Virus record (IMG/VR): IMGVR_UViG_3300028800_000005
Location: 1-64,000 of that record
Direction: 5' to 3' (one strand)
DNA: 64,000 nt
DNA from: a virus
Shown here: positions 2,780 through 62,389 of the stretch, in pieces
Layout: the number at the start of each line of letters is the position of its first letter
How positions within the stretch are numbered: position 1 is the stretch's first letter
Position numbers and translations under genes: made by a program
The notes under the pieces: generated by a model
Databases searched by the model: none
What the model was told of the DNA's origin: nothing
Seen by the model: only the letters and a program-made list of their open reading frames with translations

Positions 2780-4399
2780 ATGGGCGCACTTGACGAAGAC
2801 TTTGAGCTAGATCAAAGCGGTGAGACCAAAGAGGAAAAGCAGCTCCGCGAGGAGACGCAGGTCATTGTCACCGCCGCCCAGCAGGCGCGGGTAAACCTTC
2901 TGGTCGACAAGCTCATGCTACTCACGGACGAGCTGTCCGGTAACCCCCTGCGTGAGTACCAGGTCCCTTTCGGCCGGAGGATATTCGAGTCCCTTATCAT
3001 CGGGGACGGTGCCCGTATCACGGCCCTGTTCTCTCGGCAGTCAGGCAAGACGGAGACGGTCGCTAACGTCATCGCTGTCGCCATGATCTTCCTTCCCCGG
3101 CTGGCCCAGGTCTACCCTGATTTCATGGCCCTCGGGAAGTTCAAGAAGGGGCTCTGGGTCGGTGCGTTCGCCCCGGTGGAGGACCAGGCGGACACGCTGT
3201 TCGGCCGTATCGTCGCGCGCCTCTCAAGCTCTGAAGCCGAAGAGTTCTACATGGACCCGGAGATTGACGACCGGATCGACGGGCACGGTAAGATCGCCAC
3301 CCTGAAGAAGTGCGGTTCGTTCGTTCGCCGGATGACCTGCCACCCGAAGGCGAAGATCGAGTCTAAGACCTACCACCTGATCCTTATCGACGAGGCGCAG
3401 GACTCGCACTCGAAGACGGTCAAGAAGTCGGTTAACCCGATGGGCGCGTCGACCCGCGCGACCCACGTCTGGACTGGCACGCCGACGTACACCAAGAACG
3501 TGTTCTACGACCAGATCCAGAAGAACAAGCGTAAGGCACTTCAGCGCGGTCGGAATAAGCAGAACCACTTCGAGGCTAACTGGCGTGAGGTCGCCCGTTG
3601 CTTCCCGACTTATAAGGCCTCGGTCGCTGACGACATGGAGACCATGGGCCGGGAGTCTGAGGAGTTCCTGCTCAGTTACGAGCTGAAGTGGCTGCTTGAC
3701 AAGGGCCAGTTCACTACCTCCGAGAAGTTCGAGGAGCTGGGAGATAACCGCGTCCAGGCCCTGGAGCACACCTGGTTCCGGACCCCGGTGGTCGCGGGAA
3801 TTGACTGCGGCCGGAAGCAGGACAAGACGATCGTCACGATCGTCTGGGTCGACTGGGACCACCCGGATGAATTCGGGTTCTTCGAGCACCGGGTCATTAA
3901 CTGGCTTGACCTTGAGGGAGTCGAATGGGAGGAGCAGTACTTCCAGATATACGACTTCCTGCAGGGATATAAAATCGAGGCTGTCGGAGTCGACATCGGC
4001 GGTATCGGTGACGTGGTAATAGGCCGGTTGAAGACGCTCATGCCGAACGTGAACTTCGTCGAGTGCGGGGACGCACCTGGTGAGCAGTCGGCCCGGTATA
4101 AGTGGCTCCAGCAACTGATGCAGCGCCGTCGTATTATCTGGCCAATGGGTGCTAAGGTTAAGAGACTGCGCGCATTCCGGAGGTTCCGTCAGGAGATGGA
4201 AGACGCCGAGATGGAGTACAAGGGCCATAACATGAAGGTCGCGGCCCCGGACGATAACGACGCGCACGACGACTACGTCGACTCCCTGTGCAACGCGGTG
4301 GCCATGACTATCCCGAAGCAGGATCAGAAGCAGGACGAGACGGTACGCGTCTATGACAATTTCATTTTTCGGCCCTCTCGCCGTGGTTGGCAACGGTAG
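2780..4399 (+). CDS. terL: Terminase large subunit
   Basis: Walker A SRQSGKT, Walker B ILIDEAQ, coupling motif TGTP, RNase H-like nuclease GIDCG...D and HDDYVDS. Confidence 0.93.
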   Translation: MGALDEDFELDQSGETKEEKQLREETQVIVTAAQQARVNLLVDKLMLLTDELSGNPLREYQVPFGRRIFESLIIGDGARITALFSRQSGKTETVANVIAVAMIFLPRLAQVYPDFMALGKFKKGLWVGAFAPVEDQADTLFGRIVARLSSSEAEEFYMDPEIDDRIDGHGKIATLKKCGSFVRRMTCHPKAKIESKTYHLILIDEAQDSHSKTVKKSVNPMGASTRATHVWTGTPTYTKNVFYDQIQKNKRKALQRGRNKQNHFEANWREVARCFPTYKASVADDMETMGRESEEFLLSYELKWLLDKGQFTTSEKFEELGDNRVQALEHTWFRTPVVAGIDCGRKQDKTIVTIVWVDWDHPDEFGFFEHRVINWLDLEGVEWEEQYFQIYDFLQGYKIEAVGVDIGGIGDVVIGRLKTLMPNVNFVECGDAPGEQSARYKWLQQLMQRRRIIWPMGAKVKRLRAFRRFRQEMEDAEMEYKGHNMKVAAPDDNDAHDDYVDSLCNAVAMTIPKQDQKQDETVRVYDNFIFRPSRRGWQR

Positions 4400-4443: not shown

Positions 4444-4983
4444 ATGGAAGAAAAACTCTGCCCAAAGTGCAAGCGCAAGCTACCCGTAGACAGGTTCTCG
4501 AAGGACAGCCGACGTAAGGATGGACATCAGCCGTACTGCAAAGACTGTAACAAGGTGTACTACGACGAGCACCACGATACTATACTTGCAGGTAGAGCGA
4601 AATACTACCGGGATACCCTATACGACAGGCTAACCTGGCAAGCCGAGTACCGGGCCGAACATCGACCATCCGCTATCGCCGCCGCGAGATTTTGCAATAA
4701 AGGAATTACAGCGGAGCGGTACCAGGAAATGTGGGATGAACAAGGCGGCTTGTGTGCCATCTGCAAGAAGCCGGAAACGGCAATGGTGCACGGGACCCTA
4801 AAGCAGCTAGCAGCAGACCATGATCACTCCTGCTGCCCTGGCAGAAAATCCTGCGGTAAGTGCTTTCGCAAGCTGCTATGCTCCCACTGCAACGTTGCCC
4901 TGGGAATGGTTCACGACGACATAGAGGTTCTGGAGAATATGATCGAATACTTGAAGACCTCAAAGCGAGCATGGTCGAGGTAA
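4444..4983 (+). CDS. Endonuclease VII-family (His-Me) free-standing endonuclease
   Basis: N-terminal CxxC...KDG...CxxC module; QGGLCAIC...DHDH...C.RKLLCSHCNVALG. Confidence 0.88.
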   Translation: MEEKLCPKCKRKLPVDRFSKDSRRKDGHQPYCKDCNKVYYDEHHDTILAGRAKYYRDTLYDRLTWQAEYRAEHRPSAIAAARFCNKGITAERYQEMWDEQGGLCAICKKPETAMVHGTLKQLAADHDHSCCPGRKSCGKCFRKLLCSHCNVALGMVHDDIEVLENMIEYLKTSKRAWSR

Positions 4984-12849: not shown

Positions 12850-13024
12850 GTGCACGCACCACTGGCAGGACTGCCCGGAACATAACCCGGACCATGGGTT
12901 GCCCTCACTGATAACAGTAACGGACTGCCTTTACGGTGGTCTGCAGACAGTCGACGGAGACCCGTGGGACACGCATGACTCAGAAGAGGTCTGGGACCGT
13001 GTGTTCAAAAGGATTCTGCCATGA
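12842..13024 (+). CDS. Hypothetical protein
   Basis: Overlap-coupled small ORF. Confidence 0.5.
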   Translation: MAECTHHWQDCPEHNPDHGLPSLITVTDCLYGGLQTVDGDPWDTHDSEEVWDRVFKRILP

Positions 13025-13173
13025 AGGCGGGTCCGGACTCAGTGTTCATGAACTGTCCTTTCTGCGGGAAGATAATGTTCTTCAAGACGTTCCACATGCG
13101 CCAGCACGTCCGGCGCATCGTCCTGATGGCCCGCTGGTACACCACGAACAAGATGCCAGGCACCAATGGCTGA
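13021..13173 (+). CDS. Small C2H2-like zinc-finger protein (50 aa, not in ORF track)
   Basis: MKAGPDSVFMNCPFCGKIMFFKTFHMRQHVRR...; ATGA overlap with upstream gene. Confidence 0.5.
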   Translation: MKAGPDSVFMNCPFCGKIMFFKTFHMRQHVRRIVLMARWYTTNKMPGTNG

Positions 13174-13798
13174 GGTTACAAAGAGCTGCTACACCTGCAA
13201 GCAGGATAAGCCCTTGTCGGACTACCAGAAAAACAAGGCTAAGAAAGACGGCCTGGAGCATCGCTGCCGCGCATGCAATAATGCTCGCATCCGAGCTGCG
13301 TATGCCAAGGACCCAGCTAAGAAGATTGCCGCCACACGCCAGTATCATTTGGATCACCCAGAGTGGTCCAAGACAGTACTACGTGAGTGGCACGAGCAGA
13401 ACGCTGAACGACGTTACCAGGAATATCTGGAGCGGGGCAAAGACCCCGAAGTTGCTGCTAAGCGCCGGGACGCCTCACGCCGGAGTGAATCCAGGCGGCG
13501 TGCCTTGATGGCTGGCGGCACCCTAGTAGATCACATTTCATCAGACGACCTTGATAGGGTTCTAGTAGAATACCAAGGGCGTTGCTGGATTTGTCACGTC
13601 GACCTGGCAACTGTTGACCTTCATTGGGACCACTATAAGCCTCTGGCGAAGGGCGGTGAGCACACGTTGGCTAACCTACGGCCTTCGTGTTCCGACTGCA
13701 ACGTCAGAAAGAATAGTATCTGGCCATTGACCGAGGAGCGTCTAGACGCAATTCGGCGCGCGGTGGGAATACTGCGCGAACCTAAGGAGGTGATGTAA
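13166..13798 (+). CDS. HNH endonuclease (free-standing, homing type)
   Basis: N-terminal CxxC...KDG...CxxC; CWIC...HWDHYKPLAKGGEHTLANLRPSCSDCNVRK. Confidence 0.92.
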   Translation: MAEVTKSCYTCKQDKPLSDYQKNKAKKDGLEHRCRACNNARIRAAYAKDPAKKIAATRQYHLDHPEWSKTVLREWHEQNAERRYQEYLERGKDPEVAAKRRDASRRSESRRRALMAGGTLVDHISSDDLDRVLVEYQGRCWICHVDLATVDLHWDHYKPLAKGGEHTLANLRPSCSDCNVRKNSIWPLTEERLDAIRRAVGILREPKEVM

Positions 13799-13802
13799 GA
13801 CA

Positions 13803-15550
13803 ATGTCTATCGACTTCCCCAGTGCCAGCATGCGTGCGGCCGGTGGTGATCTGGCGATTCAGGTGTCTCCTCTCGGACTTATTGATATCTCCGAAGAGGA
13901 GTTCTTACCTTCGAAGTTCACGGTCCCCGGGTCATTAGGTACGCTAACAATTGGGCGTTCTATTTGGGCCATCACTGGATGTACAGGAAAAATGCGGGTG
14001 AACCGCAACTAACGTTTAACCACGTTAGGGCATTGTCCTTAGCGTCCGACTTCATGACGAACTTCACGTTCTCAAAGGGCGTGACGTTCAAAGTCAACAA
14101 GATGTTCCAGCACATCACCCCGGCCCTGCTCGGCCGGATCTTTGACAAGGACAATAACCGGCAGCAGTTCCTGTGGTCGATCGGGCAGCAGGGCGGGGTA
14201 TCCGGCGACTGCTTCGTCAAGGTAGCGTACGCTGAGCCAGGTACTGAGGCCGCTGACCCGATGACCGGCGCTGGCCGTGTCATGCTGATGGTCCTGCAGC
14301 CGTCACACTGCTTCCCCGAGTGGCACCCTCACCTCCCCGGCAAGATGACCAAGTTCACCATGAAGTACAAGTTCTGGGGAACGCAGCCGGACGGTACACG
14401 CGTGGTTAACACGTACGTCGAGGAAATCACTGACGACACAATCAAGGAATACATTAACGACGAGCTGTTCCGGGACGACCAGAACCCGCTCGGGCGTATT
14501 CCCGTTGTCCATATCGCGAACGTCCCGGTCTCCGGTTCCCCGTGGGGACTCTCGGACATCGACCAGATCATTCCGATCAACCGGGAGTACAACGAGAAGG
14601 CCACCGAGATATCGGACATCATTAACTACCACGTGTCTCCTATCACGGTAGTCACTGGCGGCCACCCGCCGAACCTTGAGCGCGGGCCCGCTAAGATCTG
14701 GGGCATCGGGAACGAGAAGGCTAGCGTCTTCAACCTAGAAGGCGGGACCGCTGGCCTTGCTCCCGCGATGGAGTACCTTGAAGTTCTCCGGATGCGGATG
14801 CATGAGTACGGCCACGTCCCGGCAAACGCCCTGGGTGAGCCGCAGCCGATCTCTAATACCTCCGGTGTCGCGCTGGCAATTCAGTACATGCCAACGATGC
14901 AGCACTACAATCTCAAGAAGGTCCAGTACAGCACCGGCCTGAAGGAGATCGCCCAGCTATCGCTGATGACCCTGTTCCTCAAGGAGCCTGAAACCGTCCA
15001 GTACGACGAGTACACGGACGGCATCCTTGACGAGACACTAGGCCAGCAGCCAACCCTCAGTCCTAAGGACCCGGCCGTTTACGACCTGGAAGTCGAATGG
15101 CCCGCGCCGCTGCCAGTAGACATCCTGATCAAGCTGAACGAGATCCAGCAGAAGATGGAACTCGGACTGGAGTCACGCAAGGGCGCGATGCGGGACCTCA
15201 ATGAGGAGTACCCGGACGAGAAGCTCCAGGAGCTTCGCGAGGAAATGATGCAGGACGCCAAGTGGGACGCTGAGCTGCGTATTTTCAATTCGCAAGTAGC
15301 GGCTGCTATCATGGCGTTTACTGGGGTAATTCCCCCGGACCAGGGAGAGCCAGTACCACCGGAGTCACCTGAGCCAGGGAGTAACAGCCAGAGCGCTAAC
15401 GCACCACAGCAGGTTACGGCACAACAGCCCACGCTGCCAGCCGGTCTGCAAAAGGTGCAGGACGCGATGATAAATGAGCTAGTGACGAACGCCTTCTCAC
15501 CGAGGGTCCCGCTCCGGCGGAACTTCGATACGAACGACACGAACTCATGA
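13803..15550 (+). CDS. Portal protein, split across two frames (join 13803-13904 with 13913-15550), probably by programmed ribosomal bypass
   Basis: Strong SD GGAGGTGA before ATG 13803. Joined sequence reads MSIDF...SPLGLIDISEEEF/EVHGPRVIRYANNWAFYLGHHW. Downstream SPP1-type portal motifs NPLGRIPVVHIAN...WGLSDI and SNTSGVAL. Located before scaffold and capsid. Confidence 0.88.
13902..13912 (+). other. Candidate bypass site 1: take-off TTC, hungry TTA, landing TTC (8-nt gap)
   Basis: GAG GAG TTC|TTA CC TTC|GAA GTT CAC. Confidence 0.75.
14036..14047 (+). other. Candidate bypass site 2: take-off TCC, hungry TTA, landing TCC (9-nt in-frame gap)
   Basis: GCA TTG TCC|TTA GCG TCC|GAC TTC. Confidence 0.65.
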
Positions 15551-26552: not shown

Positions 26553-28100
26553 ATGACCATTTACGGACGTCCCGGTGCATACGTAACCGAGATCCTCCCC
26601 CCGCTGACGCCGCTGAACGCCCTGGCTGGCGCGTCACTTCCGGCCCTGGTTGCTAAGCACCCGCGCGGGCCCGTCACTCCTGCCCTCGTCGACTCCTGGG
26701 CGGCGTTCACGCGCCTGTACGGGTCGTACGCGGACAACCCTGGGAGTATCCTCCCGTTCGCCGTTTCCCAGTTCTTCAGTAACACCGGGTCGGCTCTGTA
26801 CGTCCTTCGCGTTGCGAATGATGACGCCGTGGCCGCGACCCTGGACCTCCAGGACATCGCGGACGACAGCCCTGGGGCGCTAGTCGTCACGGCTGCGAAC
26901 CCCGGTGACTGGGGAAACAACCTGTCCATCCAGATCACTACTGGCGGGACTACCGGGGCCTTCACGCTAACGGTGTTCCTGAAGAACACTACCGGCGTTA
27001 ACATCCTCGTCGAGAACTTCCCGGCGCTTAGCATGGACCCGTCGAACCCGCGCTACTGCGTTCCCATCCTGAACGCTCCGAATGCCGGGTCGAAGTACAT
27101 CACGGTCAAGAACCTGATCACCACCTACGTCTCCGGGGAATCCGACCTGGTCGCCACGTCGGGCTCCGTTCCTCTTTCGGGCGGGAACGACGGGACGGAC
27201 ACGGACACGATCGACACGGACGTGGTCACGACGGAGCTGGACACGCTCCCGGACCAGATCCTTGCGGTGAACCTTCCCGGTGTCTCGGACGTGGCCACGC
27301 TGACGAGTATGATCAACTGGGCTGAGCTTCGCGGTGACAAGGTCATCGTCTGTGACGGCCCGGCTCCCGACCCGAACGCGGTCCCCCAGACGGGCTACGC
27401 GGACACGGTCGTGGGAACCTACCTGGAAATGGTGTCTTCGGGGAACCCGGCGCTGCCGGACAGTTCCTACGGCGCGCTGTACGCCCCGTGGCTTCTCGTT
27501 CATGACCCGTCGTCGTCTATCTCCGGCGCTACCCGCTACCTGCCCCCGGGCCCGGCGGTCCTGGCGCAGTACCAGGTCACGGACCTTCAGGTCGGTCCCT
27601 GGCAGACCCCGGCCGGTCAGCGCGCCGTCCTGAACGGCGTCATCGCCCTGGAAGCGAAGTTCTCCGGGGACCAGCTCGCGACTCTTAACCTGGCGAACGT
27701 TAACGCCCTTAAGAGCCTGGCTAACGTGGGCTTCGTCATCTACGGCGGGCGCACTCTGGCGTCCGGGTACCCGGACATGTACCTTTCCGTCCGGCGGCAG
27801 CTAATGTCCATCGAGCATGACCTGCGCGACCTGTTCGGTTTCGCTATCTTCGAGCCGAACGGCCCGCAGCTCTGGCAGCAGATCACCAGCATCGGGGCGA
27901 ACTACCTTAACCAGCAGTTCCAGATGCACGCTCTCGGCGGGAACACCCCGACGCAGGCCTTCAGCATCGTGTGCGATTCTACAAATAACCCGCCCGCCCG
28001 AGCGCAGTCCGGGTTGTGCACGGTCGATGTCGGCGTGGCTCTCATGAGCCCGGCGGAATTCCTCCAGCTTAACATCACGCTGACCACAGGCAGTGCCTGA
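26553..28100 (+). CDS. Contractile tail sheath protein
   Basis: RPGAYV.E, RGP, PGDWGN, YAPW, PAG, GGRTL, YLSVRR, FEPN, A...PAEF. Confidence 0.95.
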   Translation: MTIYGRPGAYVTEILPPLTPLNALAGASLPALVAKHPRGPVTPALVDSWAAFTRLYGSYADNPGSILPFAVSQFFSNTGSALYVLRVANDDAVAATLDLQDIADDSPGALVVTAANPGDWGNNLSIQITTGGTTGAFTLTVFLKNTTGVNILVENFPALSMDPSNPRYCVPILNAPNAGSKYITVKNLITTYVSGESDLVATSGSVPLSGGNDGTDTDTIDTDVVTTELDTLPDQILAVNLPGVSDVATLTSMINWAELRGDKVIVCDGPAPDPNAVPQTGYADTVVGTYLEMVSSGNPALPDSSYGALYAPWLLVHDPSSSISGATRYLPPGPAVLAQYQVTDLQVGPWQTPAGQRAVLNGVIALEAKFSGDQLATLNLANVNALKSLANVGFVIYGGRTLASGYPDMYLSVRRQLMSIEHDLRDLFGFAIFEPNGPQLWQQITSIGANYLNQQFQMHALGGNTPTQAFSIVCDSTNNPPARAQSGLCTVDVGVALMSPAEFLQLNITLTTGSA

Positions 28101-61954: not shown

Positions 61955-62389
61955 ATGGCGAACGACATGGAACAACCGATTGACCTGACTCCGCTGCTGA
62001 AGACGCGGCTAGCCTGGGACCTGCTGCCTCATGAGGAAATGCACGCGTGGATGGAGAAGCTCGGACTGACTCCGGCGAACAAGGATGTCTCGGACATGGA
62101 GCACAAGGAGGCCCACGGAAGGGCCCAGCTCGCGGCTCCTATTTCCCGCCTTGTCGACGCGTACGTCGCAGTTATCTCAGAGATCCAGGCCGCGTACCTC
62201 GGAGAGCACGCTGAGGCTAACCAGGATCAGCTTGAGGCGTTCACGGAGGACGCGTTCATGCTCGGCCGCGCCGCTGCCCTGGCCGTCCTGGTGGAGTTCC
62301 TGGCGGACGGGGTTCTGGTTTACGGCCCGGAGCTAGTCCAGGGTCTATTGGAACTTGCTGAAGAACGAGAAGACGAGGACGAGAAATGA
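61955..62389 (+). CDS. Hypothetical protein
   Basis: SD AGGAG; acidic helical protein. Confidence 0.65.
   Translation: MANDMEQPIDLTPLLKTRLAWDLLPHEEMHAWMEKLGLTPANKDVSDMEHKEAHGRAQLAAPISRLVDAYVAVISEIQAAYLGEHAEANQDQLEAFTEDAFMLGRAAALAVLVEFLADGVLVYGPELVQGLLELAEEREDEDEK

Follow-up and report, generated by a model that had tools for sequence, protein, structure and literature searches.

Two UUA-opened coding gaps beside a homing endonuclease gene in the portal gene of a rhizosphere myovirus

We analyzed a stretch of 64,000 nucleotides (nt), positions 1 to 64,000 of the IMG/VR virus record IMGVR_UViG_3300028800_000005 (here called the window), and found that its portal gene is interrupted near the 5′ end by two short inserts. 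Each insert opens with the leucine codon TTA and closes with the same codon that stands just before it. The inserts are real and recurrent, they follow a common grammar, and they are associated with endonuclease genes; the region around them is mosaic, and TTA is avoided genome-wide. We think it probable that ribosomes hop over both inserts at UUA, as described for the terminase gene of phage phiHau3, and that the inserts belong to a homing endonuclease cassette like mobA/gene 60 of T4, with minimal gaps.

Read directly, gap 1 lies in the context TTC-TTA CC TTC-GAA from 13902 onward (a hyphen marks each gap border), and gap 2, 134 nt past it, in the context TCC-TTA GCG TCC-GAC at 14036-14050. 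At both gaps the codon before the insert (take-off) and the codon at its end (landing) are read by the same tRNA, TTC/TTC and TCC/TCC. Gap 1 changes the frame. The portal frame is -1 (or +2) relative to the open reading frame (ORF) that begins at 13803, is shut by TGA at 13883-85, and contains no ATG, GTG or TTG from 13886 to 13963, the first being TTG 13964. Standard decoding of UUA at gap 1 leads to an early stop, TAA 14010-12; gap 2 is in frame and brings no such stop. The 69-amino-acid dead-end ORF that results has no Pfam match, and beyond F34 its residues no longer follow the frame of the homologs. Removing the 8 nt TTACCTTC (13905-12) links ...EEEF to EVHGPRVIRYANNW... and so to a body that scores 56.4 bits against the PF05133 cut-off of 25.5, as an SPP1 Gp6-like portal. 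An initial annotation, made from the letters of the window, had described the codons, stops, GAGGAG motif, 69-amino-acid ORF and first TTG of 13803-14050, and all of these were verified on the sequence. It had also credited ATG 13803 with a strong Shine-Dalgarno (SD) site; AAGGAGG is present, but its 12-nt spacing is rather long for a strong one. The features are collected in Table 1.

Table 1. Features of the portal locus, in window coordinates
Feature	Position	Strand	Basis or remark
HNH-type homing endonuclease gene, 210 amino acids	13166..13798	+	Pfam HNH PF01844 E 1e-8; PHROG phrog_1035 "endonuclease VII" E 1e-29
Shine-Dalgarno-like AAGGAGG before portal ATG 13803	13784..13790	+	read from sequence; spacing to ATG 12 nt
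Portal segment 1, codons 1-34 (MSID...SEEEF), take-off codon TTC 13902-04	13803..13904	+	near-identical to L083, L007
Internal SD-like GAGGAG	13896..13901	+	0 nt from take-off codon, 8 nt from landing codon
Coding gap 1, TTA CC TTC (8 nt)	13905..13912	+	hungry TTA 13905-07, 2-nt spacer, landing TTC 13910-12
Dead-end ORF, 69 amino acids, product of normal TTA 13905 decoding	13803..14012	+	ORF list; stop TAA 14010-12
Portal segment 2 (E35...S76), take-off codon TCC 14036-38	13913..14038	+	conserved residues; own start codon absent before TTG 13964
7-bp hairpin CUAACGU/ACGUUAG	14009..14028	+	ends 7 nt 5′ of take-off codon 2
Coding gap 2, TTA GCG TCC (9 nt), in frame	14039..14047	+	hungry TTA 14039-41, 3-nt spacer, landing TCC 14045-47
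Portal segment 3, SPP1 Gp6-like portal body	14048..15550	+	Pfam PF05133 E 3e-15

Homologous portals lack both inserts. Those of the Streptomyces phages GiJojo and LuckySocke read unbroken as ...SDEEFEMHGPR... and start 34 codons before this match, as in the window, and metagenomic relatives with 65-89% identity contain a contiguous ...SEEEFEVHGPR.... The initial annotation had predicted a contiguous EEFEVHGPR with the 8 nt missing, and this is what the alignment gave: at the nucleotide level, the window carries exactly 8 extra nt at gap 1. The 9 nt of gap 2 are absent from homologs too, which read RALS-DFMTNF. Both inserts are extra relative to L003/L083, L005, L006, L025 (numbers preceded by L denote portal loci), GiJojo and LuckySocke, where the flanks are adjacent, and homologs show no length variation at the junctions. 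The closest gap-free relative, L083, is a 112,412-bp contig that is syntenic on both sides of the locus, without the HNH gene and without both gaps. Its portal protein is 89% identical to that of the window, with ~90% amino acid identity over segment 3, 41/42 residues identical in segment 2 and 33/34 in segment 1 (31/34 for L007, a relative with two gaps of its own). The N-terminus is the best-conserved part of the family. By megablast, there is no near relative among GenBank phages.

The interrupted segments behave as coding sequence. Across codons 1-76, the window and L007 differ by 32 synonymous and 8 non-synonymous changes (pS 0.65, pN 0.045, omega ~0.03), 14 and 4 of which fall in segment 1 and 18 and 4 in segment 2. 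Codons 35-53, which contain no start codon, have an omega of ~0.02, and synonymous change there is saturated. Both interrupted segments are under strong purifying selection. Since segment 2 also has no start codon in its first 17 codons, decay, a split gene and downstream initiation do not fit.

The gaps recur in related portal genes. Our homology sample comprised 126 distinct portal loci from IMG/VR and JGI metagenomes, and 7 of them are gapped, all within the first 76 codons. L007 has TTC-TAG C TTC and TCT-TGA A TCC, exactly at the two sites of the window. The others are GCT-TGA AT GCT (L014), CTT-TGA CTT (L095), TGG-ATA TAA AGG (L081), AAT-TAGC (L103), CGA-TAGC (L019) and CAT-TTAC (L012). 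Pattern scans for site 1, by which further gapped portals were sought, yielded 13 more; two other matches, L180 and L183, were due to chance and are not portals. The site-1 gaps from the scans open with TTA (TTC-TTA G TTC, GAA-TTA T GAA, GAA-TTA CC GAA, GAA-TTA GC GAG), TAG (GAA-TAG CT GAA, GAA-TAG C GAA, TTC-TAG CGA TTC, TTC-TAG C TAC), TGA (TTT-TGA TTC, TTC-TGA CGA TTT, TTC-TGA CTC, TTC-TGA ATC) or AGA (TTT-AGA TC), and additional gaps are AAT-A AAC in L178 and CGA-TTA C CGC in L173. The total is 25 gaps in 21 portal genes, so that the same grammar is found in 20 contigs besides the window; site 1 is gapped in 15 of the 21 genes (14 contigs besides the window).

Among the 25 gaps, TTA is the opening codon in 8, TAG and TGA in 7 each, and the rare codons AAA, AGA and ATA in one apiece. 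Eleven gaps end with a repeat of the take-off codon and 6 with a synonym of it; in 5 the landing codon differs by one base (L081, L168, L170, L171, L181), and in 3 it has no match. A landing codon read by the same tRNA is thus found in 17/25 gaps, where chance would give roughly 1 in 30 each. Synonymous pairs include TCT/TCC, GAA/GAG, TTT/TTC, AAT/AAC and CGA/CGC. The repeat is always in frame and often synonymous, which fits matching at the tRNA level and does not fit a DNA duplication. The gaps of L007 are 7 and 7 nt long versus 8 and 9 nt in the window, so the conserved protein is regained in both genomes only if the gaps are taken out. The TTA-opened gaps that we checked all lie in portal genes that are otherwise TTA-free (the count for L173 is unreliable), and portal genes that use TTA as a sense codon have gaps opened by stops or AGA. 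L007, for example, uses TTA freely as Leu elsewhere in its portal.

Some gaps lie elsewhere in the gene. A TTA-opened 7-nt gap is located deep in the portal body of L173 (oriented contig 4863-4880, codon ~172) and is missing from L175, a close relative, so the 5′ end is not the only place for gaps. L181 and L178 have second gaps ~12-17 codons past site 1, in the ...NW / YLGHHW region, and several relatives carry two or three gaps. A separate case is L085, where an in-frame TAG at ~2131-2133 (portal codon 244) stands for a conserved Ser/Gly codon (SPWGL*DI) in a portal that is otherwise intact. Possible explanations are a nonsense mutation, an error of sequencing and recoding of the stop codon; we rejected it as a gap, since it replaces a sense codon.

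The initial annotation overlooked the main context of the gaps, which is a homing endonuclease gene that immediately precedes the portal and was inserted along with its gapped 5′ segment. The HNH gene at 13166-13798 is intact. In L083, 54 nt stand in for window positions 13122-13803, so the HNH gene is an insertion relative to L083. A nuclease gene stands immediately before the portal in 5/7 gapped and 0/119 ungapped loci of the homology sample (Fisher p = 9e-8; for the 0/119, 125 upstream ORFs were scanned with Pfam and four nuclease queries were run by tblastn). The five are L007 and L095, with HNH genes of the phrog_374 type, and L014, L081 and L103, with Endonuclease_7. When all 15 site-1-gapped portals are considered, 10 have a nuclease gene upstream (L181 and L182 by eye only). 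Seven of these are window-type HNH homologs (L170, L176, L172, L171 and L168 with 45-56% identity by BLAST, L182 by eye), and three are of the phrog_374 type (L007 and L178 by PHROG match, L181 by eye).

Two further observations bear on how the gaps arrived. First, in three loci the nuclease ORF starts with duplicated portal codons 1-32 (L103:851-1366, L171:3058-3804, L081:905-1396); the element took over the portal start, and a second portal 5′ end lies downstream. This duplication indicates that the element entered the portal beside site 1, bringing its own copy of the portal 5′ end. Second, the window portal is nearer L007 up to 14044 (32 versus 19 informative sites) and nearer L083 beyond (290 versus 83; Fisher p = 1e-8), the best recombination breakpoint being 14068-14072, just past gap 2. 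Judged from these affinities, the 5′ 240 nt of the portal gene are of different ancestry, and the mosaic pattern is what a homing co-conversion tract would look like.

Based on these findings, we propose the following mechanism. Decoding would stall when the P site is occupied by UUC (gap 1) or UCC (gap 2) and the A site by UUA, a very rare codon. The peptidyl-tRNA would unpair, the mRNA would slide by 8 nt (gap 1) or 9 nt (gap 2), and the tRNA would re-pair with the identical codon that closes the gap, so that translation could resume at GAA (gap 1) or GAC (gap 2). Such hops would yield the junction peptides ...ISEEEFEVHGPR (also given as ...DISEEEFEVHGPR) and ...ALSDFMTNFTFSK. If UUA were decoded normally at gap 1, the product would be the 69-residue dead end. 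Across the family, a cassette would consist of a take-off codon, a slow or stop codon, 0-3 nt and a landing codon, and would travel with HNH or endonuclease VII genes that are inserted in the portal 5′ end or immediately before it. In the conserved portal 5′ sequence, the gaps probably disrupt the target of the endonuclease, which would leave the carrier uncut, while hopping would restore the protein. Immunity from cleavage is suggested here by analogy with T4 mobA/gene 60, and the hop, with its efficiency, is predicted from the codon grammar and from precedent.

Two elements may stimulate hopping. GAGGAG, immediately 5′ of take-off codon 1, would sit at an initiation-like 8-nt spacing from the landing codon. 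The initial annotation had suggested that it could act as an internal SD; the motif does lie at 13896-901, and its stimulatory role is putative. GAGGAG occurs in 13/15 site-1-gapped portals versus 34/104 ungapped ones (Fisher p = 9e-5), although the gapped cases may not be independent. At gap 2, the 5′ hairpin could help push the mRNA forward. Its fold z is -2.5 in both the window and L007, and L007 has one A-U to G-C compensatory change. The stem has two mismatches in the gap-free L083, and 5 of its 7 bp are kept in the ungapped L005, which makes the hairpin weak evidence.

Several points weigh against this account. GAGGAG is found in a third of the ungapped genes, and common descent of the cassettes may account for its enrichment; the RNA around site 1 folds no better than shuffled sequences (z = +0.7). 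Nine of the 21 gapped genes show no upstream nuclease gene. These may have lost it, as can happen with MobA. The window and L007 are gapped at the same sites, but their HNH genes belong to different families, and phiHau3 has no endonuclease gene directly adjacent to its gapped terminase, the HNH gene gp1 lying 1.4 kb upstream. Three 4-nt gaps (AAT-TAGC, CGA-TAGC, CAT-TTAC) have no matched landing codon, and another mechanism, for example a +1 shift that adds one residue, may operate at least at 4-nt gaps. Two serial hops must still give enough portal. Finally, the virus is known from metagenomes alone, so its host is a matter of presumption.

The initial annotation had proposed that the gaps are a dedicated sensor of host state: portal, and hence virions, would be made only while a bldA-type tRNA-Leu(UAA) is scarce. 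On this view the endonuclease gene is incidental. The genome does show the codon usage that this idea calls for. It is a complete viral contig of 112,017 bp with ~109-bp terminal repeats and 61% G+C, in which all ORFs taken as genes lie on one strand. We counted 8 raw TTA in 33,137 codons versus ~104 expected (rough gene set; position-specific base composition), so TTA is avoided ~13-fold or more; CTA, ATA, GTA and TCA are common in the same codon set. Seven of the 8 lie outside the portal. Five of these were read (6534, 72980, the 76357 region, 105887 and the embedded 62169 ORF), and in each the frame is non-coding; three of the five and one further TTA lie within an overlap with the preceding ORF. 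The suspected in-frame TTAs at 72980, 105887, 62169 and the 76357 ORF were rejected as wrong frame or 5′ ORF extension. A TTA in a small ORF at 88555 stands as a candidate in-frame case outside the portal. Apart from the two portal gaps, then, ~33,000 codons hold no other convincing in-frame TTA, which upholds the earlier statement that in-frame TTA is confined to these sites, with 88555 still a candidate. A genome-wide scan for XYZ, stop or TTA, N0-9, XYZ gave 11 matches; the one at 105871 is an ordinary gene junction, that at 62169 is in the wrong frame, and several others have a start codon within the spacer.

The phage genome has no tRNA-Leu(UAA), its only tRNA gene being tRNA-Asn. Decoding of UUA would thus fall to a tRNA of the host, and the phage behaves as though that tRNA were limiting. 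The nearest isolates are Streptomyces phages with 48-52% portal identity, and the source is a rhizosphere metagenome; relatedness to these isolates and the avoidance of TTA hint at an actinomycete host, presumably Streptomyces-like, in which tRNA-Leu(UAA) would be limiting.

The restriction of TTA to the two sites and the lack of a phage tRNA-Leu thus favor a sensor, the same regulatory idea has been proposed for the phiHau3 terminase (PMC10732093), and dependence on the tRNA level follows directly from the hop mechanism. A purpose-built sensor nevertheless appears unlikely to us. Relatives gapped at site 1 use TAG, TGA or AGA, which cannot report the state of bldA; the common requirement is therefore a slow A-site codon, not bldA sensing. 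The gaps track endonuclease genes. The gap-free L083, whose portal is also TTA-free, is found in the same sample at higher depth, so the sensor is not needed for such a lifestyle. What stands of the earlier proposal is its structural reading, strongly backed by comparison (a non-coding 8-nt gap opened by TTA, matched TTC codons and a second cassette within the gene), and the tRNA-level dependence that a hop would entail; in a bldA-type host, making portal only when tRNA-Leu(UAA) is scarce may be a by-product or secondary use of the cassette.

A frameshift near TTA (-1 or +2) at gap 1, combined with read-through of gap 2, would add 2-3 residues per site, and we regard this as quite improbable. 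It draws on gap 2 being in frame and readable as Leu-Ala-Ser, and on the 4-nt gaps of relatives (stop then C), which resemble prfB-like +1 sites. Gap 1 itself is not such a site: its frame needs +8 (or -1/+2). There is no slippery sequence, and tRNA-Phe is unable to re-pair in the -1 or +2 frame at GAG UUC UUA. A frameshift leaves the matched landing codons unexplained. In-frame stops inside the 6- and 9-nt gaps of L095, L177, L178 and L182 make read-through impossible, the 7-nt site-2 gap of L007 has a stop that bars it too, and the homolog junctions are constant in length.

The portal could instead start at TTG 13964 or ATG 13979, its N-terminal ~55 residues being dispensable or a separate peptide and the gaps tolerated damage. 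Several close relatives are indeed annotated from internal Met codons (P0004, P0009, P0012 and P0013; P0018-P0021 are likewise truncated), but this would equally fit gene callers truncating such genes. Neither 13964 nor 13979 is preceded by a Shine-Dalgarno sequence, and the strong conservation of the startless codons 35-53, in the best-conserved part of the family, makes a downstream start very improbable.

That the gene is broken in a defective virus, or that the insert is an assembly artifact, is hardly credible even for a genome taken from a metagenome with no isolate: the genome is complete with terminal repeats, both segments are under purifying selection, the grammar is shared by 20 other contigs, and positions 13798-14079 occur in per-run contigs of three rhizosphere runs (X1, X2, X3) with 0 differences and 0 gaps at a depth of 4-9x. 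The run check used assembled per-run contigs, none of the runs listed for this stretch was an RNA run, and X1 and X2 may be the source samples of the assembly; the independent contigs keep the insert unchanged, which excludes the assembly indel that the initial annotation had wanted to rule out. Run X2 also holds a gap-free L083-type relative from 14045 onward, ~2.6-fold deeper (19x versus 7x). Gapped and gap-free forms co-occur in one rhizosphere sample, so the two forms can meet in nature.

Other features of the genome are of note. A tail-sheath gene at 26553-28097 identifies the phage as a myovirus, as the initial annotation had it. Three further Endonuclease_7-type genes are located at 4444-4983, 71231-71638 and 77301-77861, one of which directly follows the large terminase gene (2780-4396); the gene upstream of the endonuclease VII gene at 77301 has no gap. 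A large AAA-type ATPase gene lies near the terminase at 598-2112, for which PHROGs gave generic ATPase families only. A small Cys-rich ORF of 50 amino acids with a CPFCG motif (13021-13173) is kept in L083, just before the HNH insertion point.

Very few natural cases of programmed bypassing are known. They are T4 gene 60 with its relatives, the byps of yeast mitochondria, and three terminases of Streptomyces phages for which a UUA bypass has been proposed. Full-text literature searches found no paper on bypassing in portal genes. The observation is far beyond chance, and the window portal probably extends the phiHau3-type UUA bypass class to a new gene; the wider set of minimal hop cassettes tied to homing endonucleases is apparently undescribed. 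The ~25 putative natural short-hop cassettes, with varied opening codon, spacer and landing codon, would be a ready mutational series for ribosome take-off and landing. They also matter for annotation, since gene callers truncate gapped portals. The endonuclease link suggests that the self-immunity principle of mobA/gene 60 is more general and workable with few nucleotides. More tentatively, and with less than even confidence, we suggest that matched-codon hop cassettes of 4-9 nt may be a general means of self-immunization for homing endonuclease elements within essential conserved genes. The unit of endonuclease plus gapped portal 5′ segment would be mobile among soil myoviruses, and the stop would be swapped for UUA where hosts ration tRNA-Leu(UAA), tying head assembly to host development.

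The nearest known counterpart is the phiHau3 terminase (Smith et al. 2013; Antonov et al. 2023, PMC10732093), together with the StrepC.1 and S. catenulae prophage terminases. The initial annotation had pointed to it as a proposed case. Read directly, the phiHau3 blocks are GGC-TTA CTCC GGT and TCT-TTA ACGG TCC, with the same grammar as the gaps in the window. Bypass of the first block was shown by mass spectrometry in E. coli, with UAA replacing UUA (PMC10732093). In both phages, short frame-disrupting inserts that are missing from homologs start with UUA and have take-off and landing codons for the same tRNA (GGC/GGT and TCT/TCC in phiHau3). Both have two blocks in one essential packaging or head gene of a TTA-avoiding phage, an actinophage in the case of phiHau3 and presumably here too, and for both the suggested stimulators are an SD-like sequence and a 5′ stem-loop. 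The window gene differs in being a portal and not a terminase, with gaps of 8 and 9 nt (2-3-nt spacer) versus 10 or 7, one of them in frame; its gaps adjoin a homing endonuclease gene, and many of its relatives have stops instead of UUA. For phiHau3 gp5, the matching family carries the annotation minor tail protein.

In T4-like phages, the MobA element pairs an HNH endonuclease with a bypassed gap. This gap, whose first codon is a stop or hungry one, confers protection from MobA, and some clades have lost the endonuclease or carry another family in its place (bioRxiv 10.1101/2022.08.31.505936). As in this T4 gene 60/MobA cassette (Bonocora et al. 2011, as cited in Manning and Atkins 2022, bioRxiv 10.1101/2022.08.31.505936), the window has an HNH gene beside a gap in an essential gene, and the gap opens with a stop or hungry codon between matched codons. 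The endonuclease gene and the gaps are both absent from the close relative L083, just as T4 relatives without the endonuclease gene lack the gap, and endonuclease families are swapped, or may have been lost, while the gap stays. Target sequence is duplicated in the cassette as well, the L103/L171/L081 arrangement resembling the MobA "homR" region. The gene 60 architecture of a 50-nt gap, take-off stem-loop and nascent-peptide signal is not found here: the portal gaps are 4-9 nt long, leave no room for an in-gap stem-loop and give no sign of a nascent-peptide signal. The target is portal where T4 has topoisomerase, the sequence is not homologous to the gene 60 cassette, and protection would hold here by analogy.

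The Magnusiomyces capitatus mitochondrial byps, as far as they are described in PMC10732093 (citing Lang et al. 2014), are similarly numerous bypassed inserts in coding genes and apparently mobile elements, but they are 27-55 nt long, GC-rich and mitochondrial, with no homing endonuclease link in that account. In E. coli, hops past a stop or hungry codon in the A site are known at low level (Weiss et al. 1987; Gallant and Lindsley, as cited in PMC10732093). They involve the same re-pairing of peptidyl-tRNA at a nearby cognate codon, and CTT-TGA CTT of L095 has their textbook form. Those hops, as summarized there, are synthetic or accidental and inefficient, whereas the portal gaps are natural, conserved and located in an essential gene.

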